64,000 nucleotides of DNA from NCBI RefSeq assembly GCF_055900595.2, contig NZ_CM148325.1; one strand, 5' to 3'. Position 1 is the stretch's first letter. Every line of letters begins with the position of its first letter. Positions 27,888 to 59,418 of the stretch are shown piece after piece. A program made the translations under genes and the position numbers. Below the pieces are notes generated by a model, which saw only the letters and a program-made list of their open reading frames with translations, searched no databases and was not told where the DNA came from.

Positions 27888-27942
27888 GGTCGGCGCCATG
27901 GCTGATCGGGCCACCGCTGAATATTAATCAAGGAGAGTGTTT

Positions 27943-35000: not shown

Positions 35001-37131
35001 CACGCTGGATGTTATCTACACGGTGATAACCAGCCCGGACTCACCGAGCGCGAAATTCTGGGGACACATGCCGGACACCTTTACCAGTTCGGCAGGCGTC
35101 ACCTTCAGACGACCGCTCCTGAAAGCCGAAGCGACTTCAGGGTCATCGATTAGCACTAACGGTAATGGTGAAGTGTGGTCGTATATGAGCAACGTTCAAA
35201 ATTTAACATCGACAGATTGTCCGCTGGAGAATCAACCGCGCAGTAATGAATTGTTGGATTTGTATAATGATCATCCCAACGGCGCGATAATGACTGACCT
35301 GGGGCTGCCGATATATGCAGGCAAGTGGTGGGCTTATGATATGGTCATGCCGGATTTATATACGTGGCAGTATCAGACTGTCAGCCTGAGCGCAGGAGAT
35401 ATCGCGAAGAGCTCGGCAAACAACGCGCTGATGCTTTGCCTGGCGAAGCCGCATCCGGCAGGCGTCAGCGTAATGTTGACGTCATCCGCAATGGATAACG
35501 CCAGAACCCTCAGTAATGGCGGGCGACCCAGCGCGTCAGTGAAAAAAGGTAACCCACTGCCAATTGTGGTGACGGTCAAAGATCGTGATGGCAACCCGCT
35601 GGCGGGAGAGGCCGTGACGCTCAGGCGTGGTTCAGCGATGAGTCGTTCAGGAGCAGGAGTGGGCACGCCGGCAAATGCAATGACGTTGACAGAATTGACA
35701 CCTGTGTCGGCGGAGTTTTCTCTGGCCGCACACGATACGCAATGGCAAGGTTTCACCGGTAGTGATGGTACGGCCACTTTCAATGTTGAACAGCCTGAGA
35801 CCATCGGCCTGGCTATCTCGTTCACCGCTATACTGGCGCGAGATGTCGCAACTACCAGCGTCATTGATGCGATCTTTACCGTCGTCACCAGCCCGGATTC
35901 CGCAATGGCGACCTACTGGGGCCATATGCCGGATACGGTAACGGCGGAAAACGGCGTGGTCTTTGAACGGCCTAAATTGTTGAAAGAGCTGCCGTCGAGC
36001 GCCGGAGTCAGTCAGGTGACGGATAACAATGAAGTGTGGCCGTTGTTTAAGGCAACGCAAAGGGAAGATAGCAGCCTCAGTCCTTGTGAAGCGGCACGTC
36101 GGCCATTGAGCGATGATTTATTATCGCTCTACGCGCGCTATCCGGGGAACACGCTGACGACTCAAATCGGCTGGTCTACGAAGTATGCATGGTGGGCACT
36201 GGATAACAAGCAGGGGAATGCCCTGGTTGTCAGTCTGAATAATGGTTTTGAGTCGTCGACGGCGAGTACGGGGTATCAGGGATGTCTGGTCAATCCCCGC
36301 GCGACCGTCTCCAGCGTCACGCTGACATCGACGGCGATAGATGCCACTACGCAGGCGGCGAAGGTAAAAAAAGGTGAAGCCGCGCCCGTCGTTGTTACCG
36401 TAAAAGACAGCGCCGGGAAGCCGGTACCTAATGTCGCTTTCACCTTAAAACGTGGTGATGCCGTGCCGCGTAACAGCGGGGCGACGTTGTATGGTGATGT
36501 TGCGGCGATGGATGATATGACGGTACAACCTGCCAGCGGGACGGTGGTAACGCTGGCTGACAGTGGGAATACGATCGACGGTGTGACAGGGGCGGACGGT
36601 ACGGCAAGTTTTGCCGTTCGTCAGGATAATACGCCAGGATATAAAACGCCGTTGACGGTGACGCTGACGGATAACGCCACAATAACGGCGACGCTGGATA
36701 CGATTTTCACCGTGCCGACCAGCCCGAATGTCGCCACGGCGTATTTCTGGGGGCATATGGCGGATACCGCCACCGTAAGTGGCAAGACGTTACATCGCCC
36801 GCTATTGAAATCAGAGTTGCCGTCAGGGGCTACAGCGGCAGTAGCGCCAACGGTGAATAATGAAATCTGGGCGCTGGCACATGTGATCGATGCTCAAAAA
36901 TGGGATATTGCAAAGCAGTGCGGTGACTTTAGTAGAGCACCGAGCTATACCGATTTACAGTCATTGCATAGCGGTTTTAGCGCGCTGGGATGGCCATCAT
37001 CGATAAGCTTCCCCTATTTCTCTACCGATCGGGCCGGTTCGTTCTATTGTGGTATGGATGAAGGGGCGGGGACACAAAACTGCGGTATTCAGGCATCCAG
37101 TACCGCAGGGTTTGCGACTTGTTTCCAGTAG
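29044..37131 (+). CDS. ratA: giant repetitive secreted/surface protein (RatA-like)
   Basis: 2695-aa ORF with N-terminal signal peptide; nine tandem ~270-aa units each carrying FTV(V/L)TSPD..(M/F)WGHM motifs. Confidence 0.8.
29650..37100 (+). repeat. nine in-frame tandem coding repeats (~0.81-0.86 kb period) within the ratA-like gene
   Basis: WGHM signature recurs near nt 30033, 30838, 31642, 32490, 33347, 34197, 35058, 35917 and 36757. Confidence 0.8.
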
Positions 37132-40242: not shown

Positions 40243-41820
40243 ATGACGGAAAACATTCATAAGCATCGCATCCTCATTCTGGACTTCGGTTCTCAGTACA
40301 CCCAACTGGTTGCGCGCCGCGTGCGTGAACTGGGTGTTTACTGCGAACTGTGGGCGTGGGATGTGACAGAAGCACAAATTCGTGACTTCAATCCAAGCGG
40401 CATTATTCTTTCCGGCGGCCCGGAAAGCACCACCGAAGAAAACAGCCCGCGTGCGCCGCAGTATGTCTTTGAAGCAGGCGTACCGGTATTCGGCGTTTGC
40501 TATGGTATGCAGACCATGGCAATGCAGTTGGGTGGTCATGTTGAAGCCTCTAACGAACGTGAATTTGGCTATGCGCAGGTTGAAGTCGTAAACGACAGCG
40601 CACTGGTTCGCGGTATCGAAGATGCGCTGACAGCAGACGGTAAACCTCTGCTCGATGTCTGGATGAGCCATGGCGATAAAGTTACCGCTATCCCGTCCGA
40701 CTTCATCACCGTAGCCAGCACCGAAAGCTGCCCGTTCGCCATCATGGCAAATGAAGAAAAACGCTTCTATGGCGTACAGTTCCACCCGGAAGTGACTCAT
40801 ACCCGCCAGGGGATGCGCATGCTGGAGCGTTTTGTGCGTGATATCTGCCAGTGTGAAGCCCTGTGGACGCCAGCGAAAATTATCGACGATGCAGTAGCCC
40901 GTATCCGCGAGCAGGTAGGCGACGATAAAGTGATCCTCGGCCTCTCTGGTGGCGTGGATTCCTCCGTGACTGCAATGCTGCTGCACCGCGCAATCGGCAA
41001 AAACCTGACTTGCGTATTCGTTGACAACGGCCTGCTGCGTCTCAACGAAGCAGAGCAGGTTCTGGATATGTTTGGCGATCACTTTGGTCTGAACATTGTT
41101 CACGTTCCGGCAGAAGATCGCTTCTTGTCAGCGCTGGCTGGTGAAAACGATCCGGAAGCAAAACGTAAAATCATCGGTCGCGTTTTCGTTGAAGTATTCG
41201 ATGAAGAAGCGCTGAAACTGGAAGATGTGAAGTGGCTGGCGCAGGGTACTATCTACCCTGATGTTATCGAATCTGCCGCGTCTGCAACCGGTAAAGCTCA
41301 CGTCATCAAATCTCACCATAACGTGGGCGGCCTGCCGAAAGAGATGAAGATGGGCCTGGTTGAACCGCTGAAAGAGCTGTTCAAAGACGAAGTGCGTAAA
41401 ATTGGTCTGGAGCTGGGCCTGCCGTACGACATGCTGTACCGTCACCCGTTCCCGGGACCAGGCCTTGGCGTTCGTGTGCTGGGCGAAGTGAAGAAAGAGT
41501 ACTGCGACCTGCTGCGCCGTGCTGATGCCATCTTCATTGAAGAACTGCGTAAAGCGGACCTGTACGACAAAGTTAGCCAGGCGTTTACCGTGTTCCTGCC
41601 GGTACGTTCTGTTGGCGTAATGGGCGATGGTCGTAAATACGACTGGGTTGTGTCTCTGCGTGCCGTCGAAACCATCGACTTTATGACCGCACACTGGGCG
41701 CATCTGCCGTACGATTTCCTTGGTCGCGTTTCCAACCGCATTATCAATGAAGTGAACGGTATTTCCCGCGTGGTGTATGACATCAGCGGCAAGCCACCGG
41801 CGACTATTGAGTGGGAATGA
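40243..41820 (+). CDS. guaA: GMP synthase (glutamine-hydrolysing)
   Basis: 525-aa ORF; GATase domain (GVCYGMQ) plus ATP-pyrophosphatase SGGVDSSV motif. Confidence 0.95.
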
Positions 41821-41865
41821 TTCGTTAACGCTTTTCTGCGATTAACACCCATCGAAAATAATACT

Positions 41866-41900
41866 AACCGCCTTGATTTACAGGCGGTTTTTTTATTTTC
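41866..41900 (+). terminator. rho-independent terminator after guaA
   Basis: AACCGCC-TTGATTTACA-GGCGGTT hairpin followed by TTTTTTATTTT. Confidence 0.8.
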
Positions 41901-41985
41901 AGTCATTAATAACCATCAGTTACTATCTGTTGTTTTTAGCGGTAAATTTGACGGTATAAGAAATTTTTAGTCAGTGTTACACTCC

Positions 41986-42024
41986 ATTTTACCGTCAGGT
42001 TTTAGCCAGCGGTGACGGTAAAAT
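41986..42024. promoter_or_regulatory. perfect 12-bp inverted repeat just upstream of the integrase start (candidate operator or att-associated site)
   Basis: ATTTTACCGTCA (41986..41997) and TGACGGTAAAAT (42013..42024) separated by 15 bp; a related GACGGTA half-site occurs near 41950. Confidence 0.45.
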
Positions 42025-42030
42025 TTCACA

Positions 42031-43245
42031 ATGGAGAGTGACCCGATGCTGACCGATACCAAACTGAAAAACCTCAAAGCGCGGGAAAAACTTTATAAAG
42101 TTGCAGACCGTGATGGGCTGTATGTAACCGTATCTCCCAAGGGATTGGTGACGTTTCGCTATGACTATCGAATCAATGGTCGTCGTGAAACGTTAACTAT
42201 TGGTCGCTATGGTGACGGTATTTCTCTGGCGCAGGCGCGCGAAAAATTAGTGGAAGCCAAAAAACGCGTAAATGCAGGAATATCGCCCGCTGGAGAGAAG
42301 CGTGACGGTAAAACAAAGCGAAAAGAAGAAAAGACACTCCACGATTTTACCGTCAGCTACATGAAACACACCCGGCTGGCGGACAGCACAAGGGCGATGA
42401 AGCAAAGCATTATCGACAGAGACATCACGCCAGTATGGGGGCGCAAGCTGCTGTCAGAGATAACCCCCTCTCTCCTACGTGAGTATTGCGACAAGATAAA
42501 AGCGCGTGGTGCGCCAGCGACGGCGATTCAGGTTCGCAATATCGTTAGTGCGGTATTTAAGTTCGCCGCGCTTCACGGCGACTATTACCCCAATCCTGCC
42601 GAAGAGGTTTTACCGGCTTCAATTGCGACATTCGAAGCGCGCGACAGGGCGCTCAAGCCAGAGGAGATAGGCTGGTTTTTCAATCAGCTTGAACAAACGG
42701 GTACATTACCCACCATCAAGCTGGCCATTAAATTGGTTTTATTAACGATGGTACGTAAAAGTGAACTGCTGAACGCTCCGTGGGGTGAGGTTAATTTTAA
42801 TGCCTGCCTTTGGACGATTGACGCCAGCCGGATGAAGGGATCACGGGATCATAATGTTTATCTGTCCCGGCAGGCACAGGACATTCTGATTGCCCTGAAA
42901 ATGTGCGCAGGAAGCAGTGATTGGGTTTTGCCTTCATGCAATCAGTCGTCGCATAAGACCATGTCGGCGGCGACCTTAAACCGGGTCATTAATCTTACGG
43001 TTAAGCAGGCGCAGGAACGGGGGATCAGGCTGGCGTCGTTTTCCGTTCACGATATGCGCCGAACGGCATCGACGTTATTGCATGAGGCGGGGTTTAATTC
43101 CGACTGGATAGAAAAATGCCTCGCGCACGAGGAAAGAAGCGTCAGAGCCGTTTATAACAAAGCGGAATACGCAGAGCAGCGCCGTGATATGTTGCAGCAG
43201 TGGGCGGATATGGTTGATGGGTGGATCAAGCAATACCGCCCGTAA
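42031..43245 (+). CDS. int: tyrosine-type site-specific integrase (P4-like family)
   Basis: 404-aa ORF; N-terminal LTDTKLKNLKAREKLYKVADRDGLYVTV arm-binding type sequence and C-terminal catalytic region (HDMRRTASTLL..CLAHEE..VYN); alternative start ATG 42046. Confidence 0.9.
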   Translation: MESDPMLTDTKLKNLKAREKLYKVADRDGLYVTVSPKGLVTFRYDYRINGRRETLTIGRYGDGISLAQAREKLVEAKKRVNAGISPAGEKRDGKTKRKEEKTLHDFTVSYMKHTRLADSTRAMKQSIIDRDITPVWGRKLLSEITPSLLREYCDKIKARGAPATAIQVRNIVSAVFKFAALHGDYYPNPAEEVLPASIATFEARDRALKPEEIGWFFNQLEQTGTLPTIKLAIKLVLLTMVRKSELLNAPWGEVNFNACLWTIDASRMKGSRDHNVYLSRQAQDILIALKMCAGSSDWVLPSCNQSSHKTMSAATLNRVINLTVKQAQERGIRLASFSVHDMRRTASTLLHEAGFNSDWIEKCLAHEERSVRAVYNKAEYAEQRRDMLQQWADMVDGWIKQYRP

Positions 43246-43248
43246 GTA

Positions 43249-43503
43249 CTATGCGGGGATCTTGGTACCAGAGCGCTTTGGGACTTTGGCCAGATTTTTC
43301 TGTACCGCGTTATCAATATGGTGATGGTTATTTTCCTGCCGTGCTTTGAGCCAGCGTTCCACTTCCTCTTTGTCCCACGCGACGGCGCGCTTCGTTAGCG
43401 CAAAACGTTTGGGAAACAGGCCTTTTTGCTCCAACGCATAAATCGTACTTTCAGAGAGTGGCACCATCTGTAAAAGCACGTTTTTTCTAATGGCAATTTT
43501 CAT
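43249..43503 (-). CDS. AlpA/Vis-family phage transcriptional regulator (excisionase-like)
   Basis: 84-aa ORF resembling AlpA (..LSESTIYALEQKGLFPKRFALTKRAVAWDKEEVERWL..); adjacent to and divergent from int. Confidence 0.75.
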   Translation of the reverse strand: MKIAIRKNVLLQMVPLSESTIYALEQKGLFPKRFALTKRAVAWDKEEVERWLKARQENNHHHIDNAVQKNLAKVPKRSGTKIPA

Positions 43504-44314
43504 TGTTTATTCCTTTAATCCAAAGGCACTCAGTTCTGATAACAGATCCTTTTTTACCAGCAGCGGCAGATTGCTTTGTCTCTTTACGCCAGCCGGTTAG
43601 CAAATCGTTATACATTTCGGTGTCGTAGCCGCTGATAACCACGCTTCCTTGTAACCGGGTGACGGTCTCCAGTAAGCGCAGGTGGGCACCATCGTCCATT
43701 TCGTGGCGATAATATTTGTTAGTCAGATTACGGGTGCTATGAACATACGGCGGATCGACAAAATGCAGCGTGTCGGCGGCGTCATGATCCAGAATACACT
43801 GGATGGCATCGCGGTTTTCCACCAGAACCCCTTCAAAACGCTGACCAACGGCGGCCAGATTATCGGGCATACGGCTCCAGATGTGTTGGGCCGTTCCACT
43901 GGCGCGTTTAGTGTCCAGCCGAAAGCCGGTAGTGCCTTTAGTTGCCCCGGCAGAACCGAAGCCCATCGTGGCGCGAATCACTAAACGCCTTGCCTGTTCA
44001 ACAGAATTTTTCCCATAGCGATAGGCCGAAATAAACTCGGTGCGGGAATAGGGTGTCAGGCTGCAGGCTTCAACCAGTCTTTCGCGCAGTTGTGGGGTAC
44101 GAAGAACGGCGAACAGGTTAACGACGTCGCCATCCAGATCGTTGTAAACCTCGGCGTAGCTACGTGGTTTTCTGAGCAGTACGCTGGCTGCACCGCCGAA
44201 GGGTTCCACATAGCATCTGTGGGCCGGAAAGTGGCTAATGATCCACGGAGCTAGTCGCCACTTGCCGCCGTGGTAGCGGATTGCAGGGTGCTTAATCATC
44301 CAGTTTTTCTCCAC
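43487..44314 (-). CDS. Dam-family DNA N6-adenine methyltransferase (paralog 1)
   Basis: 275-aa ORF with N-terminal YHGGK..RCYVEPFGGAAS AdoMet motif and catalytic DPPY motif. Confidence 0.8.
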   Translation of the reverse strand: MEKNWMIKHPAIRYHGGKWRLAPWIISHFPAHRCYVEPFGGAASVLLRKPRSYAEVYNDLDGDVVNLFAVLRTPQLRERLVEACSLTPYSRTEFISAYRYGKNSVEQARRLVIRATMGFGSAGATKGTTGFRLDTKRASGTAQHIWSRMPDNLAAVGQRFEGVLVENRDAIQCILDHDAADTLHFVDPPYVHSTRNLTNKYYRHEMDDGAHLRLLETVTRLQGSVVISGYDTEMYNDLLTGWRKETKQSAAAGKKGSVIRTECLWIKGINNENCH

Positions 44315-44891
44315 GCCGTTCTACGTTCAGGTGTCGCCACTGCACCGCAATCCGTTTCATCACCGCATTCCCCTCTGGGATCACCTCCTGCGGCTCCTTC
44401 ATCAACATGACCCGCCCCCGAATAACGATCAGCGCTTGTTCCAGCAGGCCATAGTCCAGATAACAGAGATCGGGAATATCCAGTTGCCACACATAGCCAT
44501 TCCATGCTGAAAGTAGCACTTGCGCGGCGGCGCGTCCGCCGCTGGTTTCTGTGAGCGCGATTTTGGCAAGTGTATTGACGGCTGCGCCATATTCCTCTGG
44601 CGTGACGCGGAGTTTCTGCTGGCTGTTATCTTCTTTTGCCAGCGTTAATAATCCAATCGGGTGTAATACGCCCAGCTCTTCCATCTTTTCTTTCAATGTT
44701 GCAGCTGTATTCCATCCAATTCTGAATTTGCGCTGCAGGCGGCTGATACTGATAATGCCTTCCGCCTCGGCCAGTTCGACCGCTTTGGGATAGAGTTCAT
44801 TGAGCCGATATTCGTAATCAGCGAAGGGCGCACCGCTATTCTCTGGCAGGCCAGAGAGTGTTTGTGAATTATTTCCAGAGGATTTCATCAT
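44292..44891 (-). CDS. protein with FtsK-gamma-like winged-helix domain
   Basis: 199-aa ORF; segment ISISRLQRKFRIGWNTAATLKEKMEELGVL closely parallels the FtsK gamma domain ([29 protein letters not shown]); overlaps downstream Dam gene by 23 bp. Confidence 0.55.
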   Translation of the reverse strand: MMKSSGNNSQTLSGLPENSGAPFADYEYRLNELYPKAVELAEAEGIISISRLQRKFRIGWNTAATLKEKMEELGVLHPIGLLTLAKEDNSQQKLRVTPEEYGAAVNTLAKIALTETSGGRAAAQVLLSAWNGYVWQLDIPDLCYLDYGLLEQALIVIRGRVMLMKEPQEVIPEGNAVMKRIAVQWRHLNVERRGEKLDD

Positions 44892-44901
44892 AATTTCCTT
44901 T

Positions 44902-47559
44902 TTAACGTTGAAAAACCCAACACTTCACCGTCGCCGGGCGGCGCGGTGCGGCTGGGTAACGGCGGTTAAATTCAGCGTTGATGCCGCTGTTAACCGTTCT
45001 GACTTCAATAAACTTGTGGGTACGGCTGGTTTTTAGCACTCGCTTCAAATCGCTGATCGGCGGGATCTGCTGGCGGCGCTCGGTAGCCAGTTGAATAAAG
45101 TGGTTAAGGTTAACGGCGATAAGCTGTTCATCGCGCGAGTGGTTGAGCTGTGGTTCGTCGTCGCCATCGAGGAAGTCGAAAATATCCCAGAACTCCTGCA
45201 CCAGAGGATGGTCGGCGCTGATGGCCTGTTGGCGCTCCAGACTGAGGCGGATAAACATTTCTCTGGTCGCCTGTAGCTGCTCTTCCGTGACCGGAATAAC
45301 CAGCGCCAGCGCGTCGAGCAGCGCCATAAGCTGGGCGTGGTTTTTAATGATGCGGATATGGCGAATATCTGGGTGGGAGTGAAGTTGCTGCTCGTATAGC
45401 GGGATCTGACGGTTAACGCACTCCAGCACGGCCTGTTCCGCCAGCGCTGCCTTCAGCATAAAGCCGGAAAGCTGTTCTACCGGCAGGCGTTCGAGCTGCT
45501 CGGCAGCGACCTTGGTCTGAGTATTCTGGCCGCTGCGGTCGGTGTACAGGTGAATAATACGTTCCAGCACCGGGTTAGAGGCGCTAACATCGGCGTTTTG
45601 CGCAATCACAATCGCGCCCCGGAACGGCGGTTCATAGGTCTCGTTGCCGCTGTTACGCAGACCGCGAGAACGCACCGACCGCCCGTTATAGGCGGTTTTC
45701 AGCTCTTCCCAATCAAAGCCACGCTGCTTTGCCCCCTCCTGATTACGGTCACCCTCGATCAGCACCACCGGCATATTTGCTACCTGCGCAAAGTTGCGCG
45801 CGCGGGCGGCCAGCGTTGATTTAGACGGATCGAAACCTTCATAGTCGCGTCGGCCCAACAGTTTCCAGAGGAACTCTATCAGCGTGGTTTTACCGCTGCC
45901 GGGTTCGCCAACGATTTCCAGAAATGGAAAGCTCTTGTGCTTGTCGCGGATCTGTTCGGCAAACATCGTCCCAAACCAGTACGCCAGCGCCACAAACCCC
46001 TTTGCGCCAAACGCCTGCCAGAGTAGCTGGGGCCACTGGCTGTCCATCTGTTTTAAATTGTCGTTCAGCGTCAGGCTGACCGACTGGTTCAGGCTTTTAA
46101 GGCTAAGTTTGCCCATGTCGAAGAAGTCTTCTTCGTTGAGTGTGTACAGCCGACCATCGCGAACGGCCAGATCGTTGAACACGTAAGCGCGGTATTCTTT
46201 GCTGTAGCCGATAAAATCAGTGGTCTGGACAGTTTTGATTTTGGGAAGCTGCTTGAGCAGCAACTTATCTAACTGCTGACTGGTGCCGGTGAAGATGCCG
46301 CCCTGCGCGATATGCAGCAGGCGCTTTTTGAATTCTGAGCCGCTGGAAAGTTGGGAGCCGGTGAAGGTGTTTTTTATCGGTGGAGTGTCGTCGGGGAAGT
46401 TAATGCGAAAGTAATACCAGCTTTCGTCGGTAATGGTGTTGGCCTGATAGTAGAGGGCGGTCGGGTAGCAGTTGGCTATCTCAACAACGGCGGCTGACTC
46501 CTGTAGCGCTTTATGTTTGGCTTCTTCTTCGTCCAGCTCCTCTTTGCCGTTATACATCACGTTATCAAAGGCACGCATATAACGGTCAATATCCAGCTTG
46601 AACCAGTACAGGCGGCTGTCGAACTCGAAGTGAAACTCTTTGCGTTCGGTACGCTCATGCATCAGTAATGCTTTGGCATTCGGATTGGGAGCGATCAACA
46701 GTGAACCGTAGTAACGATATTTTTTAATCAGATCCGGGTTTAGCCGATCGCGCTGGTGCAAATCGTTCCAGTCCAGCTTGGTGCGGGAATAGGGCGTTTG
46801 TGCGGCGGTGGAAAGCCAGCCGTCGTCGCGGCTGCGTTTTACCCAGCGGCGGGTGTAATTCATGCCCGCTTTGTCGTTATCCAGCGCCCAGACCAGTAAA
46901 GGACGCTTTTTATCCACGAACAGCGCGGCCAGTTGGCTTAACGCCTGCGCCGGATAGTTGTTACAGGTCATCAGGGAAACGGCGGCAATGCCGTGGTGGT
47001 GCAGGGCGATAGCGTCAAAAATGCCCTCAACCAGCCAGATCTCCTGCTGTTCTTCCAGCTTAAGCGTTGGCAATTGCCACCATAGCCCGCTGTAAGCGCC
47101 GTGAAAATTGGCTTTGCGATCGCCGAAACGCTGTGGGCGGTCAACGATCCGCTCCCACCACACGCCGTCAGCCAGCGGGAAACGCACAGTGGCCGAGCCG
47201 AGATCGCGCCGTGCGTCATAGTAGTTCTCTTGAGCGTAACAGTTACGGAGCAGCGAAAGGTCAAAGCCGCGCATCTCGCGCAGGTAGGCATCGGCGGCGG
47301 CCTGTGGGTTTTCCGGGGTTGGGGGATATCTGTCTGACCAGCTTTCAAATAGATCCGGGTACACCTCTTTGATATGGATTTCGGCATTGCATTTATTCAG
47401 GCGACCGCAGCGCAGTACCCACGGGCTGATGGCGTAGGTGTACAGCTCTTTTTTCTGGCAGTCCGGGCAGACGCCCTGCCGCAGCCAGTCGCCCTGTTCT
47501 TTAAAGGAAAAATCGGCTAGCAGTCGCCGCGTAATTTCCTGATGAAGTTGTGGTTGCAT
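44902..47559 (-). CDS. phage/plasmid primase-helicase (zinc-binding + TOPRIM-like primase fused to P-loop NTPase; P4 alpha-like)
   Basis: 885-aa ORF; N-terminal CPDC..C..C zinc motif, EGIFDAIAL TOPRIM-like segment, Walker A GEPGSGKTT in the C-terminal half. Confidence 0.75.
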   Translation of the reverse strand: MQPQLHQEITRRLLADFSFKEQGDWLRQGVCPDCQKKELYTYAISPWVLRCGRLNKCNAEIHIKEVYPDLFESWSDRYPPTPENPQAAADAYLREMRGFDLSLLRNCYAQENYYDARRDLGSATVRFPLADGVWWERIVDRPQRFGDRKANFHGAYSGLWWQLPTLKLEEQQEIWLVEGIFDAIALHHHGIAAVSLMTCNNYPAQALSQLAALFVDKKRPLLVWALDNDKAGMNYTRRWVKRSRDDGWLSTAAQTPYSRTKLDWNDLHQRDRLNPDLIKKYRYYGSLLIAPNPNAKALLMHERTERKEFHFEFDSRLYWFKLDIDRYMRAFDNVMYNGKEELDEEEAKHKALQESAAVVEIANCYPTALYYQANTITDESWYYFRINFPDDTPPIKNTFTGSQLSSGSEFKKRLLHIAQGGIFTGTSQQLDKLLLKQLPKIKTVQTTDFIGYSKEYRAYVFNDLAVRDGRLYTLNEEDFFDMGKLSLKSLNQSVSLTLNDNLKQMDSQWPQLLWQAFGAKGFVALAYWFGTMFAEQIRDKHKSFPFLEIVGEPGSGKTTLIEFLWKLLGRRDYEGFDPSKSTLAARARNFAQVANMPVVLIEGDRNQEGAKQRGFDWEELKTAYNGRSVRSRGLRNSGNETYEPPFRGAIVIAQNADVSASNPVLERIIHLYTDRSGQNTQTKVAAEQLERLPVEQLSGFMLKAALAEQAVLECVNRQIPLYEQQLHSHPDIRHIRIIKNHAQLMALLDALALVIPVTEEQLQATREMFIRLSLERQQAISADHPLVQEFWDIFDFLDGDDEPQLNHSRDEQLIAVNLNHFIQLATERRQQIPPISDLKRVLKTSRTHKFIEVRTVNSGINAEFNRRYPAAPRRPATVKCWVFQR

Positions 47560-47647
47560 TGCCAGTACCTTTATTCAGGTAATACTTACCCGTCGCATAG
47601 ACACGTTGTTTATGCGTTGTGGTTGTGAGTCTTTTATTTACTGAGCG

Positions 47648-47896
47648 TTACGCGATTTTCTGCTTTTGCAGAAATTGCCCGCGTGTGGATAGCGGTATGT
47701 GTATCTTAGGATTCGGGCAACCGCTGGGTACTACCGTTCCCATCACGGTCTCCATCGCGATAAATGAAAACGAACAGTTAACGTTCTTGCACTGGTAATA
47801 GAGCTTACGTACCAGCGGTGACATATATTCGCTGCTGCGAATTATCGCCTTACCGTCGCAGTGTGGGCATTTCATCATGTCCGATCTCCTTACCAC
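47648..47896 (-). CDS. ogr: Ogr/Delta-family zinc-finger late-gene transcriptional activator
   Basis: 82-aa ORF (likely start MKCPHCDG at 47875) with CPHC..22 aa..CKNVNC zinc-finger spacing typical of P2 Ogr / P4 Delta. Confidence 0.8.
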   Translation of the reverse strand: MVRRSDMMKCPHCDGKAIIRSSEYMSPLVRKLYYQCKNVNCSFSFIAMETVMGTVVPSGCPNPKIHIPLSTRGQFLQKQKIA

Positions 47897-48201
47897 TTTT
47901 AACTAACTGAAACACTAACGCTTTTCGTTAACGGACTGACGAAATAGTGTGATGCCGTTCAAAAAAATGATTCTTGCCATGCTGGACATCGAACGGTTCT
48001 GCTCCAGCGCTAATGCTTACAGTTCCGCGATTTCAGCGGGGAGCAGACGCATTGCCACCGGTTTGTTCGACATCACCCCGCGGGGTGCTCGTGAGCGTAA
48101 GACGTTCTCATTTGTTTTCATGGTGGTATATTGTGGTTATTAACATTACACAATCTATAATTCCCTCAATTGAGTGAATTGTCAATGGTAATTATATCCA
48201 A

Positions 48202-48540
48202 ATGAAAGAATTTGGCATCCGTTTGAAGGAAGAACGTATCCGACTTGGCCTTGATCAAGACGGCTTTGGACAACTTGGGGGCGTGAAGAAAAACGCACAA
48301 AGTAACTATGAGAATGGACTGCGCAAGCCGGACAGTGACTATCTTGCTGGCATAGCGGCAGCGGGAGTTGATGTTCTGTATGTTCTAACAGGCAACCGCA
48401 CGCCTGTGGCTACGTTGTCCAGTAAAGAGAGTGTGTTGGTGGAGAACTATCGTTCTGCTACGCCAGAACACCAGTCCACCCTTGACACGGTTAGCGCTGC
48501 GCTTGCGCAACCGGGAGTAGGGAAAGCAGCTAAGGGATAA
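48202..48540 (+). CDS. XRE-family helix-turn-helix transcriptional regulator (Cro/CI-like)
   Basis: 112-aa ORF with classic HTH_XRE N-terminus (FGIRLKEERIRLGLDQDGFGQLGGVKKNAQSNYENGLRKPDSDYLAGIA); divergent from ogr. Confidence 0.8.
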   Translation: MKEFGIRLKEERIRLGLDQDGFGQLGGVKKNAQSNYENGLRKPDSDYLAGIAAAGVDVLYVLTGNRTPVATLSSKESVLVENYRSATPEHQSTLDTVSAALAQPGVGKAAKG

Positions 48541-48580
48541 CGAGTAGAATGAATTTGGTTATTGTCTGTATGGAGGCAAA

Positions 48581-49153
48581 ATGAAGTTGAATAATCTGGT
48601 TGCTCTTTACAGGAACATGACAGAGCAAAAATTGGATAGGGTTAAATTCCCATACAGACACAATAATTTACATTTTGATGTATTTTTCTTTATTGATGGA
48701 AAACCGTTTGAGCTTCTTTTCGGAGCATTAGGCGCTAATCTTTGCTTTCGTCTAAAAGTCGAGAAGGGATTCGTCATAAATCCTAATCTGGGAAGTGAGA
48801 CTTATAAAGAATTATGCAAGGCGCTAGGTTTGAAATATGACCCTGCCAATCCATTTAGAACAAGTAAGTTTTTTGAAGATTTTGATGGGAAAATCCCTAC
48901 ATCGGTTACTGTTAAGAATAAGGCAAAATATACTGATATTGCTGTGCATGTCAGGGATGTTGAAGAAGCAGACAGAATATATTTCTGTGGATGGAAAAAC
49001 AACAATGAAGAAAAGAGTCATGTTACTGAAGATAATTTAAAGAAAACGAAAGAGTTTTTAGGGTATCAGGCTTTTCTTGTTTGTAAGGAAAAGAATATTA
49101 GCAGTAGATGGACTGATTTAGAAAATAAAGCAAAAGATTTTTATTTACCATAG
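48581..49153 (+). CDS. hypothetical protein (cargo gene 1, no recognisable domain)
   Basis: 190-aa ORF with strong SD GGAGG; A+T-rich, Lys/Asn-rich; first gene of compact operon. Confidence 0.6.
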   Translation: MKLNNLVALYRNMTEQKLDRVKFPYRHNNLHFDVFFFIDGKPFELLFGALGANLCFRLKVEKGFVINPNLGSETYKELCKALGLKYDPANPFRTSKFFEDFDGKIPTSVTVKNKAKYTDIAVHVRDVEEADRIYFCGWKNNNEEKSHVTEDNLKKTKEFLGYQAFLVCKEKNISSRWTDLENKAKDFYLP

Positions 49154-49167
49154 GATTGTGAGGTTAT

Positions 49168-50316
49168 ATGTCTGATATTTCATTAGGGTGCGTGGTTGTT
49201 CATAGGTTGATAAAAGAGCAACATAAAGATTTCGATCACTCAAAACCATATAGTCGCCGTGATACGGTTCTTGACCGAAATAATGAAATCGTAATTAAAC
49301 TAGTGTCCAGTATAGCCGCATTGTATGGTAAAAAATCTAATAGCTCGCATTATGGTATATTTAATTTAGATGAAACACGCAGGGGGCCTTTTCCAGCGGA
49401 ATTTGATAAATATCGGAATGATACATCCAAGAAGTTAGACGATGAATTGTTTATAGGATTATCAAAAAATGTTATGCATCAGTTATATATTGAGGCAAAG
49501 GATCGACCTGCTGCATCAGGAGGATTACTTCTTTTTGCTGATTATATCAGTAAATCCGTGCGTTACTTTCTTATTGCAATGATTAAGCAAAAGGAAGGTA
49601 TAGTTATTAGTGATAAATTAGAGCCAAAGGAGTTAGAGCATCTTGATCTGGCAAAACTAAACCAGGCGGCACGAATAAACTATGATTTGTATGATAAATA
49701 TATTTCCGCTGATGAGAATGAAAGACAGGATGTTAATTATTTAAGTTTTGTTAGTCCCAGTTCTAACCAGACAACTTCAGGGTATTTCATTACTGCCTTA
49801 GGTTGTGATAAAGGTAATACATCAACTAAAGCTACGAGTAATTTAATTAATGAATCTTTTAACTTCTTCAGAAATCATCAAGAATTAAAGGATAATGCCC
49901 GTAAATTTAAAAATGAAATTATTGAGTATTTATTCGATTGTTCTGAAAATAACATTTCAGCTAAGCTCTCTGTTGTTAGTGAGATGGCGGCGAAGCATAT
50001 GGTTAATTTAGAAGATGACATTAAAGATAAATTGTCAGAAGAATTATATGCTCATTTGAATAGTGAAAGTATTCGTGTGCCTGTGGAATTTAGGGTAAGC
50101 AAATCAGTAGTTAAGAAAAACAGAAATATTAAATATACAAGTGATAATGTTAATTTTGAGTTTAAATCTAGTTTACTAGGCAATACTCTTGATAATGAGA
50201 TATGCTATAATAAGAAAACTGGACATTTAACTTTTACTCGGATTACTCCTGAGAAAAAAAGTGAAATAGCTCAATTGCTTGATGAGTTAATAAAAGAAAG
50301 AAATAGCGAAAAATAA
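49168..50316 (+). CDS. NdpA/YejK-like nucleoid-associated protein homolog (cargo gene 2)
   Basis: 382-aa ORF, SD GTGAGG; collinear similarity to E. coli YejK recalled from memory (VVVHRLIKEQH vs IALHQLIKRDE; GGLLLFADY..VRYFLIAMI vs GGxVLFCHY..VEYLLVAVL). Confidence 0.55.
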   Translation: MSDISLGCVVVHRLIKEQHKDFDHSKPYSRRDTVLDRNNEIVIKLVSSIAALYGKKSNSSHYGIFNLDETRRGPFPAEFDKYRNDTSKKLDDELFIGLSKNVMHQLYIEAKDRPAASGGLLLFADYISKSVRYFLIAMIKQKEGIVISDKLEPKELEHLDLAKLNQAARINYDLYDKYISADENERQDVNYLSFVSPSSNQTTSGYFITALGCDKGNTSTKATSNLINESFNFFRNHQELKDNARKFKNEIIEYLFDCSENNISAKLSVVSEMAAKHMVNLEDDIKDKLSEELYAHLNSESIRVPVEFRVSKSVVKKNRNIKYTSDNVNFEFKSSLLGNTLDNEICYNKKTGHLTFTRITPEKKSEIAQLLDELIKERNSEK

Positions 50317-50318
50317 GG

Positions 50319-50957
50319 TTGCTTAATATGTCATGTTTTGAAACGGTTGTTGAGCTTTTCAGATATGTAGGGCGTCCTAAATTTGATGCTATTAATAATC
50401 GTTTTTCAGCAACTATTTCTTATGATGCTCATATATATGAACTCTTAGTTTCTTTGCAACCTCATACAGCGTGGGGAGAAATTGAAGAGATTGTCATTGA
50501 TGATGTGGATATAGATGTTGATGATAGCCTTCCCGCTAAAGGAACATCAATAACACTGACAATCTCTATATCAACTGGAGCTAGTGAGTCATTTTTTATC
50601 GATATTAAAGATCTAATTCAAAAGTCTCCGATGTTAAATAGAGGTATTTTAAGAAAGTCTTTTTACTTGGTTGAGGAAGATTTTTATTTTAATGAAGGAA
50701 TGGTTGAGGGATTAGCAAAAATACCAGAACTATCTGTTTTAAAGAATCTTTGTGATTTTATTTTATGTCTATCAAAAGTTGCACACTACAGCAATAGTAA
50801 AAGTGATGATGTATGCCATAAGTTAGTTTTCTTGAAAAATACTAATGCTAAGTCATTACCTTTAATTATTGAAACTAATGTTGATTATTCACTTCTTTTA
50901 ACAGGTATTAAGGATTTAAAAATCATCGAATCTTTTTCTGATGAAAAAAAGCTATAA
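50319..50957 (+). CDS. hypothetical protein (cargo gene 3)
   Basis: 212-aa ORF beginning 2 bp after the preceding stop; acidic, no recognisable domain. Confidence 0.55.
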   Translation: MLNMSCFETVVELFRYVGRPKFDAINNRFSATISYDAHIYELLVSLQPHTAWGEIEEIVIDDVDIDVDDSLPAKGTSITLTISISTGASESFFIDIKDLIQKSPMLNRGILRKSFYLVEEDFYFNEGMVEGLAKIPELSVLKNLCDFILCLSKVAHYSNSKSDDVCHKLVFLKNTNAKSLPLIIETNVDYSLLLTGIKDLKIIESFSDEKKL

Positions 50958-51001
50958 CGGATGATAATTATTTTGAGCGAAAAGGGATTTTCATTAATAC
51001 G

Positions 51002-51583
51002 GTGGTCGATTTTCTTGAATCAATCGATGTAAAGAAACAGTTTCATTTTTTATTCTGTGAGTGGGATGAATTTCTAAAACTATACCATAATAACCTCGGT
51101 GTATATCTTAGTGGTTTTTCATTTCATAAAGTAAGAAAGGAAGTGGCAGAGGCAGAAGCTAATTTAGCTGAGCGTTTTTCAAAAATAATGTCAGACATGA
51201 TAGCTAAGCTTTTAGGTATTCCTGTTTCTTTGGTTGCTACTTTTGGCATGATAAAATTAAATACCCTGCCGGAAATGTTAGTGGTTTTTTTAGGTGTATT
51301 GCTCACGTCGATAATTATGTTTTTTATTGTAAGAAGTCAATACACACAGTTTAGGATGATTTGTGATGCTAAAGATATTATATTTTCCCCATTAGTGAAA
51401 AAATCTGTAGGTTATACAGAAGATTTGAAAAAATTAGTATGCAATGCAAAGGATAATTTAGACAAAAATCAGGTCATGTTAAATCGTTACCTTCTTTTCT
51501 TTCAATGCTTATGCTGGATTCCGACAGCCTTAGGTGGTGGAATGATCTTAATGGCTATTATGGTTCATTTAGGATTACTATAA
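51002..51583 (+). CDS. predicted membrane protein (cargo gene 4)
   Basis: 193-aa ORF with apparent GTG start; hydrophobic segments (IPVSLVATFGMIKL.., MLVVFLGVLLTSIIMFFIV, ..CWIPTALGGGMILMAIMVHLGLL); 3' end overlaps convergent gene D by 6 bp; start codon uncertain. Confidence 0.45.
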   Translation: MVDFLESIDVKKQFHFLFCEWDEFLKLYHNNLGVYLSGFSFHKVRKEVAEAEANLAERFSKIMSDMIAKLLGIPVSLVATFGMIKLNTLPEMLVVFLGVLLTSIIMFFIVRSQYTQFRMICDAKDIIFSPLVKKSVGYTEDLKKLVCNAKDNLDKNQVMLNRYLLFFQCLCWIPTALGGGMILMAIMVHLGLL

Positions 51584-52678
51584 ACTTAATTCCATTTCTA
51601 ATGCGGTGACATAACCAGTACCGCCATCCAACGTATGCACGCACCGCGTAATCACCCACGCGGTGCCATCAATTTCCGCCTTAAACCCCTTCACCTGCAG
51701 CGGTAATTCCGGGAACAAATCGGGCCGTCCACGCGCAAGATTCAGGCTGAACGTTGCCGCGCCGCGCTGTAGCTGCTCCCACGCGCTTTTTGCCGCTCTG
51801 TAGGCGTTATTTTTGTTGGCATAGGTGTGGCGCAGCACCTTGATATTTCCCTCTTCGCCAACCATCACGTTATCAGCATTGAATGAGGCGTCTGACGGCG
51901 GAGATTCTGTTGGTTGCGTTTGTGGACGGTTTTTCCGTGTCTTGCGCTTCATGTCAGTGGACTGCTTTTTTGCCTGCCGTGTATCCAGCCAGTAGGCCGT
52001 CACACCGGTATACGCCTCCCTGTCCGCGATGCTGAACCGGTGGCTGTCGCCGTCCTCGCGGGTAATGGTTGCGACCGGCAGCGGTTTGCCGCTGGCACTT
52101 TTACCGGAACCTGTCGGCATTAGCAGCAGAGCATCATTTTTCACGCAGGCGATAGCGCCGTGCAGTTGCGCCAGCCGGGTCAGGAAGGAGGCATCGGATT
52201 CGTTAGTCTGGTCAACGTGCTCAATGGCGATCCCAGCCAGCTCGCCGCTGACGGTTGATTCCAGCTTATGACGCGCCGCCACGGTTTGCACAATCGCGCC
52301 CAGCGTCGCATCATGGTAGCTCTGTTCCCGTTTAACGTTCAGCGAATCGCGGAAATCGGCGCTGCGGGCGCGGAGGCTGAGTACGTCCGGTGCGCCGCTG
52401 TGCTCCAGTTCGTCCACTGTGAAGACATTCTGGTGCATCACGCCGTCACCCTTCCAGCCTAGAGAAACCGTTAGCTTTTCGCCCTTTGCCGGAAACGCCA
52501 GCAGGCCGTCGCTGTCGTCCAGTTCGAGCTGCAGTTCGTCGGCCTCAAAGCCCCGGTTGTCGGTGATACGCAGGCTGATTAAGCGGTTGTCCAGATTCCG
52601 CGTAATGTCCTTACCGTTCAGCACCACGCTGTACTCCGGCTGCGGCTGGGCGTTTAAGAGTGCGTTTAACATCGTCAT
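51578..52678 (-). CDS. P2 gpD-like tail protein (late control D)
   Basis: 366-aa ORF, MTMLNALLNAQPQPEYSVVLNGKDITRNLDNRLISLRITDN.. typical of gpD; position after U. Confidence 0.85.
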   Translation of the reverse strand: MTMLNALLNAQPQPEYSVVLNGKDITRNLDNRLISLRITDNRGFEADELQLELDDSDGLLAFPAKGEKLTVSLGWKGDGVMHQNVFTVDELEHSGAPDVLSLRARSADFRDSLNVKREQSYHDATLGAIVQTVAARHKLESTVSGELAGIAIEHVDQTNESDASFLTRLAQLHGAIACVKNDALLLMPTGSGKSASGKPLPVATITREDGDSHRFSIADREAYTGVTAYWLDTRQAKKQSTDMKRKTRKNRPQTQPTESPPSDASFNADNVMVGEEGNIKVLRHTYANKNNAYRAAKSAWEQLQRGAATFSLNLARGRPDLFPELPLQVKGFKAEIDGTAWVITRCVHTLDGGTGYVTALEMELSL

Positions 52679-53103
52679 AGTCCGTCTACCATCGTGATGA
52701 TGTCGCCCAGCAAGCCACCCAGCTTCGGCGGATCGACACGTTTTAACGCCAGCGTAAACTCAATGCGCCGGGCCGCACCGTCGCGAAAAAAGACGCTCCG
52801 GGTGACGTTCAGACTCTCAATCACAAACCAGCCATGCAGCGATCCGGTGCCTTCAATCAGCGGCCAAGCCATCCCCTGATCGGCCATCTTTCGCAGGAAA
52901 AACAGGGTAAATCGCCCGCCGGTCAGTTCCGGCAACAGCACGCCGTTTAGCGTAATGGTTTCGTCACCCACGCCGATAAACTGGCTGGCCGGACGTAGCC
53001 CCACGCGGGAACTGGCAGGATGCCGCCACGCTACGGCGTGCTGCATATCCTGATAGGGCAGGGTTTTCAGGCTGAAGACGAACAGCCCCAGTACCATCAT
53101 CAT
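52675..53103 (-). CDS. P2 gpU-like tail protein
   Basis: ORF 52675..53211; probable start at MMMVLGLFVF (53103) overlapping end of T; 4-bp overlap with D start. Confidence 0.75.
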   Translation of the reverse strand: MMMVLGLFVFSLKTLPYQDMQHAVAWRHPASSRVGLRPASQFIGVGDETITLNGVLLPELTGGRFTLFFLRKMADQGMAWPLIEGTGSLHGWFVIESLNVTRSVFFRDGAARRIEFTLALKRVDPPKLGGLLGDIITMVDGL

Positions 53104-53113
53104 AAGAGCCTCC

Positions 53114-55963: not shown

Positions 55964-56084
55964 GATTCAACACCGCTGCGCTGGCGGGCCTGCTCCCGCC
56001 AGTAAAGGGTTTCGCCAAGGGTTAATGCGTCCATCGCGGATAGTGGCCAATGGAAGATGACGGCTATGTCGCCTTGAGCCTCCT

Positions 56085-56381
56085 CTATGCGTCCGGGGTA
56101 TCCGTTGCTTCCGGCGAGGTCTGCGGCAAAAAACCGACAAGCGCCGTACCGAAAGCCGTCAGGTCGATAAAATCCAGTTGCGCCACCTCATGCTTATTCA
56201 GCGGCGGTGCGGTGATGCGCGGTAGAACGCTGGTGAGTGCATCTACGTTAAGGCTTAACAGCTCCACCAGACTGACACCGCGCAGGTCGCCGCCCAGTGG
56301 TTTACGGATCTGGAACTCGACAAATTCGGTTTCGCCGCGTTTCAGGGGAGTATTCAGGGTAACGGTTTTACGTTCGCTCAT
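56085..56381 (-). CDS. P2 gpE-like tail assembly chaperone
   Basis: 98-aa ORF between FII and T with slippery site near its 3' end. Confidence 0.8.
   Translation of the reverse strand: MSERKTVTLNTPLKRGETEFVEFQIRKPLGGDLRGVSLVELLSLNVDALTSVLPRITAPPLNKHEVAQLDFIDLTAFGTALVGFLPQTSPEATDTPDA
56106..56112 (-). other. candidate -1 programmed frameshift slippery site (TTTTTTG) for E+E' synthesis
   Basis: Minus-strand heptamer T-TTT-TTG nine codons before the gpE stop; the -1 frame stays open across the 121-bp gap toward T, as in P2 E/E+E'. Confidence 0.6.
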
Positions 56382-56390
56382 GGTTCATCC

Positions 56391-56906
56391 TTACAGGCCA
56401 ATGGCGCGACGTGCGCCAGCCAGACGGTCTTTGCCGTCGATATTTTCAATAAAGTTCACGGTGTCGATTTCGACGATGGTTTCACCGTTGACGCTCTCTT
56501 TGTAATAGGTACAAAGGGTGCTGATTTTGGTCGCGGAGTTCTCGCCCTGCTTGTATTCGCCGCGATCCAGCTCTTTGTGGCGACCACGCACCACGATTTC
56601 CACCGCGTCGTACTCTTCGCTGTCTTCACGCTGGATAGCGCCGGAGAATCGCAGCATCACGCCGCTGATCTTCGTCCAGCCGATCTGCCGCAGCGCCAGC
56701 AGCTCATAGCCGCCGATTGACCATTCCACGCTGAGCGCCTCGTCATCCAGTCCCAGATCGACATGCGCCGCGCCGTTCATGCCGCCGCCGCGATAGGCTT
56801 CCAGCTTGCGCGTCAGCTTTGCCGGGGTGAAGGACTCCACCTGTGCCAGATAGATATCGCCCTCGTTAAACAGGTTGAGGTATTTCAGTTTGCTGGGTAG
56901 TGCCAT
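56391..56906 (-). CDS. tail tube protein (gpFII-like)
   Basis: 171-aa ORF MALPSKLKYLNLFNEG.. with typical FII C-terminus (..IDTVNFIENIDGKDRL..). Confidence 0.88.
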   Translation of the reverse strand: MALPSKLKYLNLFNEGDIYLAQVESFTPAKLTRKLEAYRGGGMNGAAHVDLGLDDEALSVEWSIGGYELLALRQIGWTKISGVMLRFSGAIQREDSEEYDAVEIVVRGRHKELDRGEYKQGENSATKISTLCTYYKESVNGETIVEIDTVNFIENIDGKDRLAGARRAIGL

Positions 56907-56920
56907 GGTGCGTTCTCCTG

Positions 56921-58099: not shown

Positions 58100-58204
58100 G
58101 AGGCGAGCCTCCATCAGGTCAATAAATGACGATGGTGGCACAGAGCGAAAAGGGCGGTGACGGCTTCCACTTGTAACCACTGGCACTACAAGCAGAAGCG
58201 GTTT

Positions 58205-58963: not shown

Positions 58964-59418
58964 ATTGTCAATTTTCCAGACCGACTGCTGACCAACGCAT
59001 ACAGCAGATTAGGAGACCAGCGCCAACTATCGCGCAGGTGCAGAAATTCGGCGCAGAACTCGCTGCAAAACAGGCGTTCCTGTTTACCCTGACTGAGTAA
59101 CACAAAACCCATGGCGCCCAGCCAGTCGTAACCTTTATCGTCGTGCTGACGAAAAAAGGTTTCCAGTGCCAGCGGATCGGCGTTGATCGGGAGTAAATCC
59201 CATTTCTCAATCGGCAGCGGCATTCGTTTGCTGCGCACGCCTTTATCCCGTACCGATGATGAGTAACAGATAAACAGGCCATCCGGCAGGCGTTCGACCA
59301 GTTCGCAGTGAGAGTAAGGGCCGCGCGTGACCTGTCGCGTCAACCAGTCGGAGAGCCGGGCAAGGCTGAAAAAGCGTTCAGCCCGGCCACGGTAGAACGC
59401 CATGTAAACCTGACTCAT
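58960..59418 (-). CDS. hypothetical protein (moron gene at Z/fun position)
   Basis: ORF 58960..59427; start likely MSQVYMAF at 59418 giving an ATGA overlap with the G stop; Cys/His-containing, no recognised domain. Confidence 0.55.
   Translation of the reverse strand: MSQVYMAFYRGRAERFFSLARLSDWLTRQVTRGPYSHCELVERLPDGLFICYSSSVRDKGVRSKRMPLPIEKWDLLPINADPLALETFFRQHDDKGYDWLGAMGFVLLSQGKQERLFCSEFCAEFLHLRDSWRWSPNLLYALVSSRSGKLTI

Follow-up and report, generated by a model that had tools for sequence, protein, structure and literature searches.

A P2-like prophage of probable phiCTX/RSY1 type at the 3' end of guaA in Escherichia coli

Identity of the element

The DNA considered here is a 64,000-nucleotide stretch of Escherichia coli chromosome (contig NZ_CM148325.1 of assembly GCF_055900595.2), hereafter called the window, in which guaA (40243-41820) is 100% identical to that of many E. 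coli genomes, the match to ordinary E. coli strains ends at 41822, and everything from 41823 to the window end is foreign. With a probability that we put at roughly nine in ten, the segment that starts at 41809 and continues past 64000 makes up the left two-thirds of a single prophage: a P2-like temperate myovirus (Peduoviridae), akin in type to phiCTX, RSA1, RSY1 and Smp131, that has integrated at the guaA 3' end. The evidence consists of gene content, homologies, synteny, attachment-site junctions, the distribution of a late-promoter dyad, and a predicted protein fold. A sequence-only reading of the same DNA had proposed either that a P2-like phage had swapped in a satellite-type replication and integration module, or that a satellite and its helper had fused. 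The genes that it had named as encoding a P4-family integrase, AlpA, Dam, a primase protein and Ogr were all confirmed, at the same coordinates, by hidden Markov model searches. The non-P2 genes for replication and integration are nonetheless the standard set of an already described branch of the P2 family (phiCTX, RSY1, Smp131), and a new phage-satellite fusion is excluded. The architecture is already known; what is new is the E. coli lineage, the guaA attachment site and the cargo, as members or details of a known kind.

A complete relative in E. coli GMF054

Most of the foreign stretch is present in only three of the 5,426 complete E. coli genomes (GMF054, L725 and CEC15). The proteins of the element in GMF054 are 95-100% identical to those of the window, with the exception of the tail fibre H (79%). 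In that strain the whole element forms one prophage of 33.5 kb (L001 2402-35906), as large as P2, with one integrase, a full P2-type set of head, lysis and tail genes, and a cos site. There, guaA is followed by int and, on the opposite strand, by AlpA, DUF7673, primase, ogr and a small open reading frame (ORF); then come the genes for a helix-turn-helix (HTH) protein, DUF6037, NA37 and a protein of 418 amino acids (aa). The order continues with D, U, T, E, FII, FI, Dam, orf155, tail-fibre assembly, H, I, J, W, V, S, R, the lysis genes, X, L, M, N and O, and then P and Q. P2 queries in tblastn also match Q, P, O, N, M, L, X, lysB, R and S of this prophage, with identities of 42-61% for Q, P, O, N, M and L. 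Just past Q lies a cos-like sequence, of which 43 bp are 86% identical to the cos site of phiCTX and 21 bp are 95% identical to the cos core of RSY1.

The capsid and terminase genes, the cos site and the second attachment site that the sequence-only reading had proposed to look for are all present in this relative. P2-type C, cox, B and A genes together with a second integrase at the far end, which it had named as the mark of two separate adjacent elements, were sought in the near-identical GMF054 prophage and not found; the same prophage also contains no psu, sid or epsilon. With tblastn at E<=1e-4, neither the window nor GMF054 gave a match to P2 int, C, cox, B or A, and homologues of P2 orf80-83, orf91, tin, old and G are likewise missing. 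Just past cos in GMF054, an AT-rich stretch (L001 35376-35660) holds several repeats containing AAAAGGTAACCTG or GGTTACC, with spacings of 98 and 67 bp, which are candidate terminase, IHF or origin-related sites.

Attachment site and junctions

The attachment (att) core of the left junction, attL, is the 14-bp sequence GAGTGGGAATGATT at 41809-41822 on the plus strand. It overlaps the last codons and the stop of guaA, and an identical 14-mer stands at the left junction in GMF054. The core was found by comparison with a prophage-free site, a generic direct-repeat search having missed it because it is only 14 bp long. The P4-family integrase would recombine this core across the guaA stop codon. 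On the phage side, a stem-loop with a T-run (41866-41897, plus strand) forms a terminator-like site supplied by the phage and is likely the replacement terminator of guaA; the phage would thereby bring its own copy of the core and a terminator, leaving guaA intact. Further inside, the motif GACGGTAWAA occurs at 41950, 41987, 42014, 42304 and 42345. These five copies, all within 41950-42354, are the only ones in the 64 kb, where 0.2 would be expected and none of 100 shuffles reached five, and they are candidate arm-type integrase sites of the P' arm.

At the other end of the GMF054 prophage, further copies of GACGGTAWAA lie about 75-85 bp inside the right phage junction, where a variant core, GAGTGGGAGTGAGG, stands at L001 35893; the repeats and the variant core together identify this position as the true right junction. 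In strains with a 3.8-kb DUF262 islet immediately behind guaA, this variant is the native 3' end of the gene. This islet occurs in 79 E. coli genomes, and in the best-matching ones (H92-H101) guaA abuts the islet without any phage, which argues that the phage integrated between guaA and the islet in GMF054. In the window copy, some 13-14 kb of prophage would remain past 64000, with the genes from S to Q and cos, and the right junction behind them would carry GAGTGGGA.. and GACGGTAAA repeats.

An alternative boundary for GMF054, in which the DUF262 genes past the portal gene were taken as phage cargo with attR at L001 39713, was rejected, since the arm-type repeats and the variant core mark L001 35893 and the islet adjoins guaA in phage-free strains. 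The islet itself (L001 35893-39726, 3.8 kb) comprises two DUF262 (GmrSD/HEC-06-like) genes between the right phage junction and yfgI, has no integrase of its own, and has a version of the guaA 3' end on either side (GAGTGGGAGTGAGG and GAGTGGGAATGATT).

The integrase (42031-43245, plus strand) carries the Pfam domains Arm-DNA-bind_3, Phage_int_M and Phage_integrase and is a P4-family, arm-type tyrosine recombinase that has the guaA 3' end as its target. Full-length alignment with P4 Int gives 30% identity (E 1e-40), and P2 Int gave no match to it. Convergent with int and last in the early operon is a small HTH protein of the AlpA/Vis family (43249-43503, minus strand; PF05930, E 7e-13), 39% identical to P4 Vis/ORF88 and 38% to RSY1 ORF48, which would act as the excisionase, as Vis does in P4. 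The same guaA site is occupied in E. coli MARGA_3 by an unrelated prophage of about 39 kb (L089 1855-41119), podovirus/BPP-1-like, with RecT and lambda P-type replication genes.

The replication protein and its neighbours in the early operon

The replication gene (44902-47559, minus strand) encodes an 885-aa protein with the Walker A motif GEPGSGKT. It matches phrog_1139 with 1262 bits over positions 2-889 of 895, and homologues were found in 42 phage records, 40 of them with at least 80% coverage; every one of these phages for which a taxonomy is shown belongs to the Peduoviridae. Full-length identity reaches 57-58% for Ralstonia phage RSY1 (ORF47) and its relatives (58% for RSY1 itself), 53% for Escherichia phage ESSI2_ev239, 48% for Pseudomonas phages phiCTX (orf37), Dobby and others, and 45% for Stenotrophomonas phage Smp131.

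The description of this protein as a P4-like primase did not hold. BLASTP against P4 alpha returned nothing significant, the Walker A motif and a Toprim stretch surfacing at E ~0.01-0.07 (best E 0.011 over 24 residues), and hhalign aligned the Toprim core alone (148-306 against 184-344, probability 85%); its family is that of phiCTX orf37 and RSY1 ORF47. The view that it is a primase-helicase fusion is, by contrast, supported by the predicted fold. A sequence search of PDB chains found no match, and it was the fold search that proved informative. In Foldseek, an AlphaFold model with a mean pLDDT of 86.9 paired in its N-terminal part with the zinc-binding and RNA-polymerase domains of DnaG primases, and from residue ~300 to 885 with SCCmec Cch (E 3e-15), SaPIbov1 Rep (E 1e-12) and then the SF3 helicases of NrS-1, PriRep1 and poxvirus D5. 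The protein is thus predicted to join a zinc ribbon and a DnaG-type Toprim primase to a P-loop helicase-initiator domain like those of Cch and SaPI Rep. These two proteins resemble it in predicted fold but share only ~11-12% sequence identity with it, and they have no N-terminal zinc-ribbon DnaG-type primase fused to them. The 885-aa protein would be a functional analogue of P4 alpha that stands outside the alpha family. Replication would be a self-primed, theta-type initiation by an all-in-one primase and helicase-initiator, in place of the A nickase and rolling-circle replication of P2. A search for iterons or an origin in the 41.8-48.3 kb interval gave no convincing repeat family except the arm-type sites.

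Between this gene and AlpA lie two further minus-strand genes. One, to which the sequence-only reading had made no reference, encodes a 199-aa protein with an FtsK-gamma winged HTH and a DUF7673 part (44292-44891), of which GMF054 has the DUF7673 part alone (125 aa). The other encodes a D12-class N6-adenine DNA methyltransferase (MethyltransfD12), here called Dam 1 (43487-44314), absent in GMF054 and present in the IMG/VR locus L009. The latter is a close relative, with a primase 92% identical, and it also has the FtsK-gamma and DUF7673 gene. Dam 1 and the FtsK-gamma N-terminal extension therefore occur in the window and in L009 and are absent from GMF054, L725 and CEC15. Two D12-class methylases are present in the prophage, Dam 1 and that at 58205-58963, and they are only 32% identical to each other.

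P2-type late genes

Homologues of P2 V, W, J, I, H, FI, FII, E, T, U and D are colinear on the minus strand from 63995 down to 51581, with 29-63% identity in tblastn, and PHROG assignments agree. The V operon (59415-64000) comprises V (from 63642 to past the window end), W (63292-63642), J (62384-63295), I (61777-62391), the tail fibre gene H (60119-61780) and a tail-fibre assembly gene (59415-60122). The F operon, also in P2 order (51578-58101) and with 29-62% identity to the P2 proteins, comprises FI for the sheath (56921-58101), FII for the tube (56391-56906), E/E' (55967-56381), T for the tape measure (53114-55963), U (52675-53103) and D (51578-52678). A T6G slippery site for E/E', TTTTTTG, lies inside E at 56133-56127 on the minus strand, and the -1 frame is open to the start of T. 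Between the two operons, at the position of P2 Z/fun, are accessory genes (58205-59427, minus strand): the second Dam methylase (58205-58963) and orf155 (58960-59427; phrog_1128).

The claim that these genes follow the P2 order exactly, from V, W, J, I, H and G through FI, FII, E/E', T, U and D to ogr, therefore stands for V to H and for FI to D. The gene in the G position encodes a DUF4376/Caudo_TAP protein and is not a homologue of P2 G, and the two genes at Z/fun are extra. Nor does ogr follow D directly, as had been stated: it is part of the leftward early operon, and a 3.7-kb, low-GC (30-43%) block on the opposite strand (48202-51583) separates the two.

Switch region, Ogr and late promoters

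A candidate switch region (48100-48201) separates the early operon from this block. To judge by consensus matches, it contains sigma-70-like promoters placed face to face, the rightward one with its -35 at 48105 and its -10 ending at 48132, the leftward one with its -35 at 48185 and its -10 ending at 48157; a palindrome, I1, lies at 48150-48189. The leftward early operon would run through a ribbon-helix-helix (RHH)-like Cro/Cox analogue, Ogr, the primase-helicase, DUF7673, Dam and AlpA. Its first gene (47915-48121, minus strand) encodes the small RHH-like protein, a candidate Cro/Cox analogue whose match to Pfam RHH_5 is weak (E 0.0024, under the curated cut-off). The 52-aa ORF is intact in GMF054 and L725; relative to both, the window has a C>A change at 48019 that creates a TAA stop (48017-48019) and leaves an ORF of 34 aa. 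Owing to this stop, the window copy may be unable to switch to lytic growth.

The rightward promoter would express a short HTH repressor together with the probable defence cargo. The candidate immunity repressor is a 112-aa HTH_3 protein (48202-48540, plus strand) matched by Pfam HTH_3/HTH_31 and by PHROG repressor families. An unannotated stretch of phiCTX matches the protein with 49% identity, and RSY1 ORF38 with 41%. The protein has no S24 peptidase domain, which makes SOS cleavage unlikely.

The Ogr/Delta zinc-finger late-gene activator (47648-47896, minus strand; PF04606, E 1e-19; annotated start in relatives at 47878) shares 42% of its residues with P2 Ogr and 47% with RSY1 ORF40. Its candidate site in front of the F operon is the dyad GCTTGTAGTGCCAGTGGTTACAAG of the TGT-N13-ACA type (58170-58193, minus strand). 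In GMF054 the dyad GCTTGTA-N11-TACAAG is found only four times, 5' of FI, V and X and between P and O, which amounts to eight strand-matches where 0.66 would be expected and which none of 100 shuffles reached. The late-promoter motif of RSY1, TGTTGT-N13-ACAACA, had been tried and gave nothing relevant in the window or in GMF054; it was direct reading of the upstream regions that yielded the dyad. Ogr would activate four or five dyad-bearing late promoters and so drive the P2-type head, lysis and tail operons. With the activator encoded in the early segment and its candidate sites in the late segment, both parts appear to form one regulatory unit.

Comparison with known phages and satellites

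In RSY1 and Smp131, a P2-like late region is combined with a different early region headed by ogr, a DnaG-type primase, and int beside att and cos (PMC5694545; PMC3931495). The early and integration region of RSY1 was described as markedly unlike that of P2, its late region being conserved (PMC5694545), and in Smp131 Ogr, a primase-like gene and the integrase are laid out likewise (PMC3931495). The map of RSY1 reads D, two leftward genes, ORF40 (Ogr), early genes, the primase ORF47, ORF48 ('excisionase and transcriptional regulator') and the convergent ORF49 ('integrase arm-type DNA-binding domain'), which is the arrangement of the window gene for gene. This plaque-forming member of the Peduoviridae (Arsyunavirus; PMC5694545) thus shares with the window the P2-order late genes down to D, repressor-side genes on the opposite strand, Ogr, a primase of 885-900 aa, an AlpA-like protein, a convergent arm-type integrase by att, and an att core of 14-15 bp at a 3' gene end. 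It differs in its Ralstonia host, in its integration in tRNA-Ser and not in a protein gene, in its late dyad (TGTTGT-N13-ACAACA as against GCTTGTA-N11-TACAAG) and in its cargo genes.

In phiCTX (Citexvirus), the P2-type late order is likewise followed by leftward genes after D and then by an early operon that runs rightward and encodes an Ogr-family regulator and the primase orf37. Unlike in the window, int is co-directional with the early operon, there is no tblastn similarity to the window integrase or AlpA, and the phage carries ctx. phiCTX integrates in a tRNA gene. Integration at tRNA 3' ends, a habit of the phiCTX/RSY1/Smp131 group, is not found here, where the core overlaps the guaA stop and ARAGORN predicts no tRNA in the window; it is a habit and not a defining trait.

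P2 itself (Peduovirus) shares with the window the order V, W, J, I, H and FI, FII, E, E', T, U, D, as well as Ogr, the T6G site, late promoters of the TGT-N12/13-ACA type and accessory genes at Z/fun. In P2, however, ogr follows D and replication depends on the A nickase, whereas the window has ogr in the early operon, a primase-helicase, and int at the far end of the early operon. P4 resembles the element in its integrase family, its Vis/AlpA family, its Ogr/Delta activator and the domain logic of a Toprim primase followed by a P-loop helicase. Unlike P4, the element has its own complete virion (in GMF054) and is three times larger. Of the P4 queries used in tblastn, int, Vis and, weakly, delta matched the element; sid, psu, epsilon, cII, gop, beta and alpha did not.

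The same organization is widespread in IMG/VR, where 509 stretches encode a relative of the primase. Among 80 loci that were fetched, many of which end at contig ends, the same order and orientation was seen for gpD in at least 36, for ogr in 53 and for the opposite-strand HTH gene in 43.

Alternative explanations

Two adjacent or fused elements, a P4-like satellite reaching from int to the cargo (41.8-51.6 kb) and a P2-like prophage beside it, would account for an integrase (30%) and an AlpA protein (39%) of families that P4 uses, for an Ogr/Delta-family gene and a defence-cargo block within the segment, and for its length of ~10 kb, which is that of P4. We regard this explanation as extremely unlikely. 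The window contains no second copy of GAGTGGGAATGATT, even with two mismatches allowed, so that a separate att pair around 10-12 kb is missing; there is no psu, sid, epsilon, cII, gop or beta, homology to alpha is limited to the Toprim core, and no Rfam RNA family is found inside the element. The P2-like part would moreover be left without integrase, repressor, replication gene and Ogr, and the plaque-forming phages RSY1, phiCTX and Smp131 have the same contiguous layout, as do numerous 30-40-kb contigs in IMG/VR. The fusion of satellite and helper is contradicted by the same absences and by an Ogr of the early part that would serve promoters of the late part. Hardly better placed, and in our judgement very improbable, is a recent chimera formed in E. 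coli when a resident P2/186-type phage exchanged int-C-cox-B-A for a foreign module. GC content does differ between the early (50-57%) and late (55-60%) parts, the nearest relative found for the integrase sits in an unrelated prophage, and the window has Dam 1 and the FtsK-gamma extension where GMF054 has neither. The late proteins, however, are about equally distant from P2 (29-63% identity), phiCTX and RSY1, and at the nucleotide level the late region comes closest to Ralstonia phages (~73% over the sheath gene). This argues that the late module does not derive from an E. coli P2/186 phage that recently received a graft. The GC content of the late region also exceeds the 50.2% of P2 (PMC5694545), and searches of 50,697 phage records and 5,426 E. 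coli genomes turned up no E. coli or Enterobacteriaceae P2-type phage that combines late genes more than 90% identical with C, cox, B and A. The junction of D, repressor, ogr and primase is kept across distant hosts, and the combination is therefore old. What survives of the proposed swap is the pairing of P2-type late genes with non-P2 replication and integration. The module is not satellite-type, since its primase family is carried by autonomous P2-like phages, and P4-family integrases with AlpA are also found in RSY1 and in the unrelated podovirus-like prophage at guaA; nor is the swap recent, since the synteny of D, repressor and ogr-primase is common to phages described since 1999.

A decaying, non-inducible remnant or a domesticated tail (tailocin) locus is a more serious possibility, albeit an unlikely one. 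It would agree with the two lesions, a stop codon that truncates the first early gene and a frameshifted cargo gene, and the head genes of the window copy are outside view. Against it, no other gene in the 22 kb is damaged, identity to the GMF054 counterparts is 95-100%, and the GMF054 prophage is complete for head, terminase, lysis and cos; both lesions are single-base changes that could be sequencing errors. Several points nevertheless weigh against our assignment to one complete phage of the phiCTX/RSY1 type. The window stops inside gene V, so that its head genes, cos and attR are read from the GMF054 relative, itself devoid of Dam 1 and of the FtsK-gamma extension. If they are not sequencing errors, the nonsense mutation and the frameshift may have cost the window copy its induction. 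The integrase is only 26% identical to RSY1 ORF49, phiCTX Int has no tblastn match to it, and it is 61% identical to that of the unrelated guaA prophage of MARGA_3. Finally, the account of the window element, including promoter use, excisionase role, replication mode and repressor identity, is drawn from sequence and predicted structure. As regards the integrase, the two identities suggest that the integration module was exchanged on an evolutionary time scale, and the 61% identity between unrelated prophages suggests that unrelated temperate phages exchange such modules, which is ordinary phage mosaicism and unconnected with satellites.

Cargo and lesions

The low-GC block behind the candidate repressor (48581-51583, plus strand; 30-43% GC) is lysogenic-conversion cargo and comprises a DUF6037 gene (48581-49153), a gene for a YejK-like NA37 nucleoid-associated protein (NAP; 49168-50316; Pfam E 5e-45) and the gene for the 418-aa protein (~50328-51583). 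In GMF054, the last of these has hydrophobic segments at 291-339 and 389-418, forming a C-terminal membrane domain. In the window, a run of seven A residues (50944-50950) replaces the eight of GMF054, and this one-base loss splits the gene into ORFs of 212 and 193 aa; it could reflect a pseudogene, phase variation or a sequencing error. If both this lesion and the early stop are real, the window copy may be unable to leave lysogeny, and its putative defence effector may be inactive.

At the same hotspot between repressor and gpD (48581-51583 in the window, and L008 8338-10424), L725 and CEC15 carry NA37 with RelA_SpoT. PADLOC offered no model covering the NA37/DUF6037/418-aa cargo. In the PANGU defence systems, type II combines a NAP with a transmembrane effector and type I a NAP with a toxSAS, and they were reported to protect E. 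coli from T4 and Bas34 (bioRxiv 10.64898/2026.04.06.716658). By analogy of architecture, the cargo of the window and GMF054 is probably type II PANGU-like and that of L725 and CEC15 type I-like.

Chromosomal surroundings

The chromosomal genes 5' of guaA are yfhM, pbpC, der, an island with inverse-autotransporter and RatA-like adhesin genes, xseA and guaB. The island, of lower GC content, lies between der and xseA (25695-37131) and has genes for three proteins: an inverse autotransporter (IAT_beta) of 730 aa, a protein of 332 aa, and one of 2,695 aa in which BIg21/InvE_AD repeats occur nine times. It resembles the sinH-sinI-ratA part of the Salmonella CS54 island. Rfam small RNAs are ryfA (7270-7574, minus strand, 312 bits) and sroE (20423-20514, plus strand, 110 bits), as expected for this E. 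coli region.

Concluding remarks

P2-like phages combine a conserved late region with a variable early, integration and replication region, as already documented for phiCTX, RSA1/RSY1 and Smp131, and the element described here has little meaning for general phage biology. It carries a caution, in that a P4-type integrase, AlpA and a primase beside tail genes do not alone indicate a satellite, and it defines an attachment site at the guaA 3' end used also by unrelated prophages and by the DUF262 islet. We propose tentatively, and with less than even confidence, a wider interpretation with three parts: that the element is a genus-level new Peduoviridae lineage in E. coli (it shares at most about 5% of its nucleotides with any phage record); that the hotspot beside its repressor swaps nucleoid-protein defence systems of the PANGU type, that of this element resembling type II and those of the sister prophages type I; and that its DnaG-primase/Cch/SaPI-Rep-like helicase represents an experimentally uncharacterized class of all-in-one phage replication initiator. 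The local value of the finding lies in the occurrence, albeit rare, of this branch of P2-like phages in E. coli as well, and in a clean example of a phage hotspot with alternative, NAP-based (PANGU-like) defence systems.

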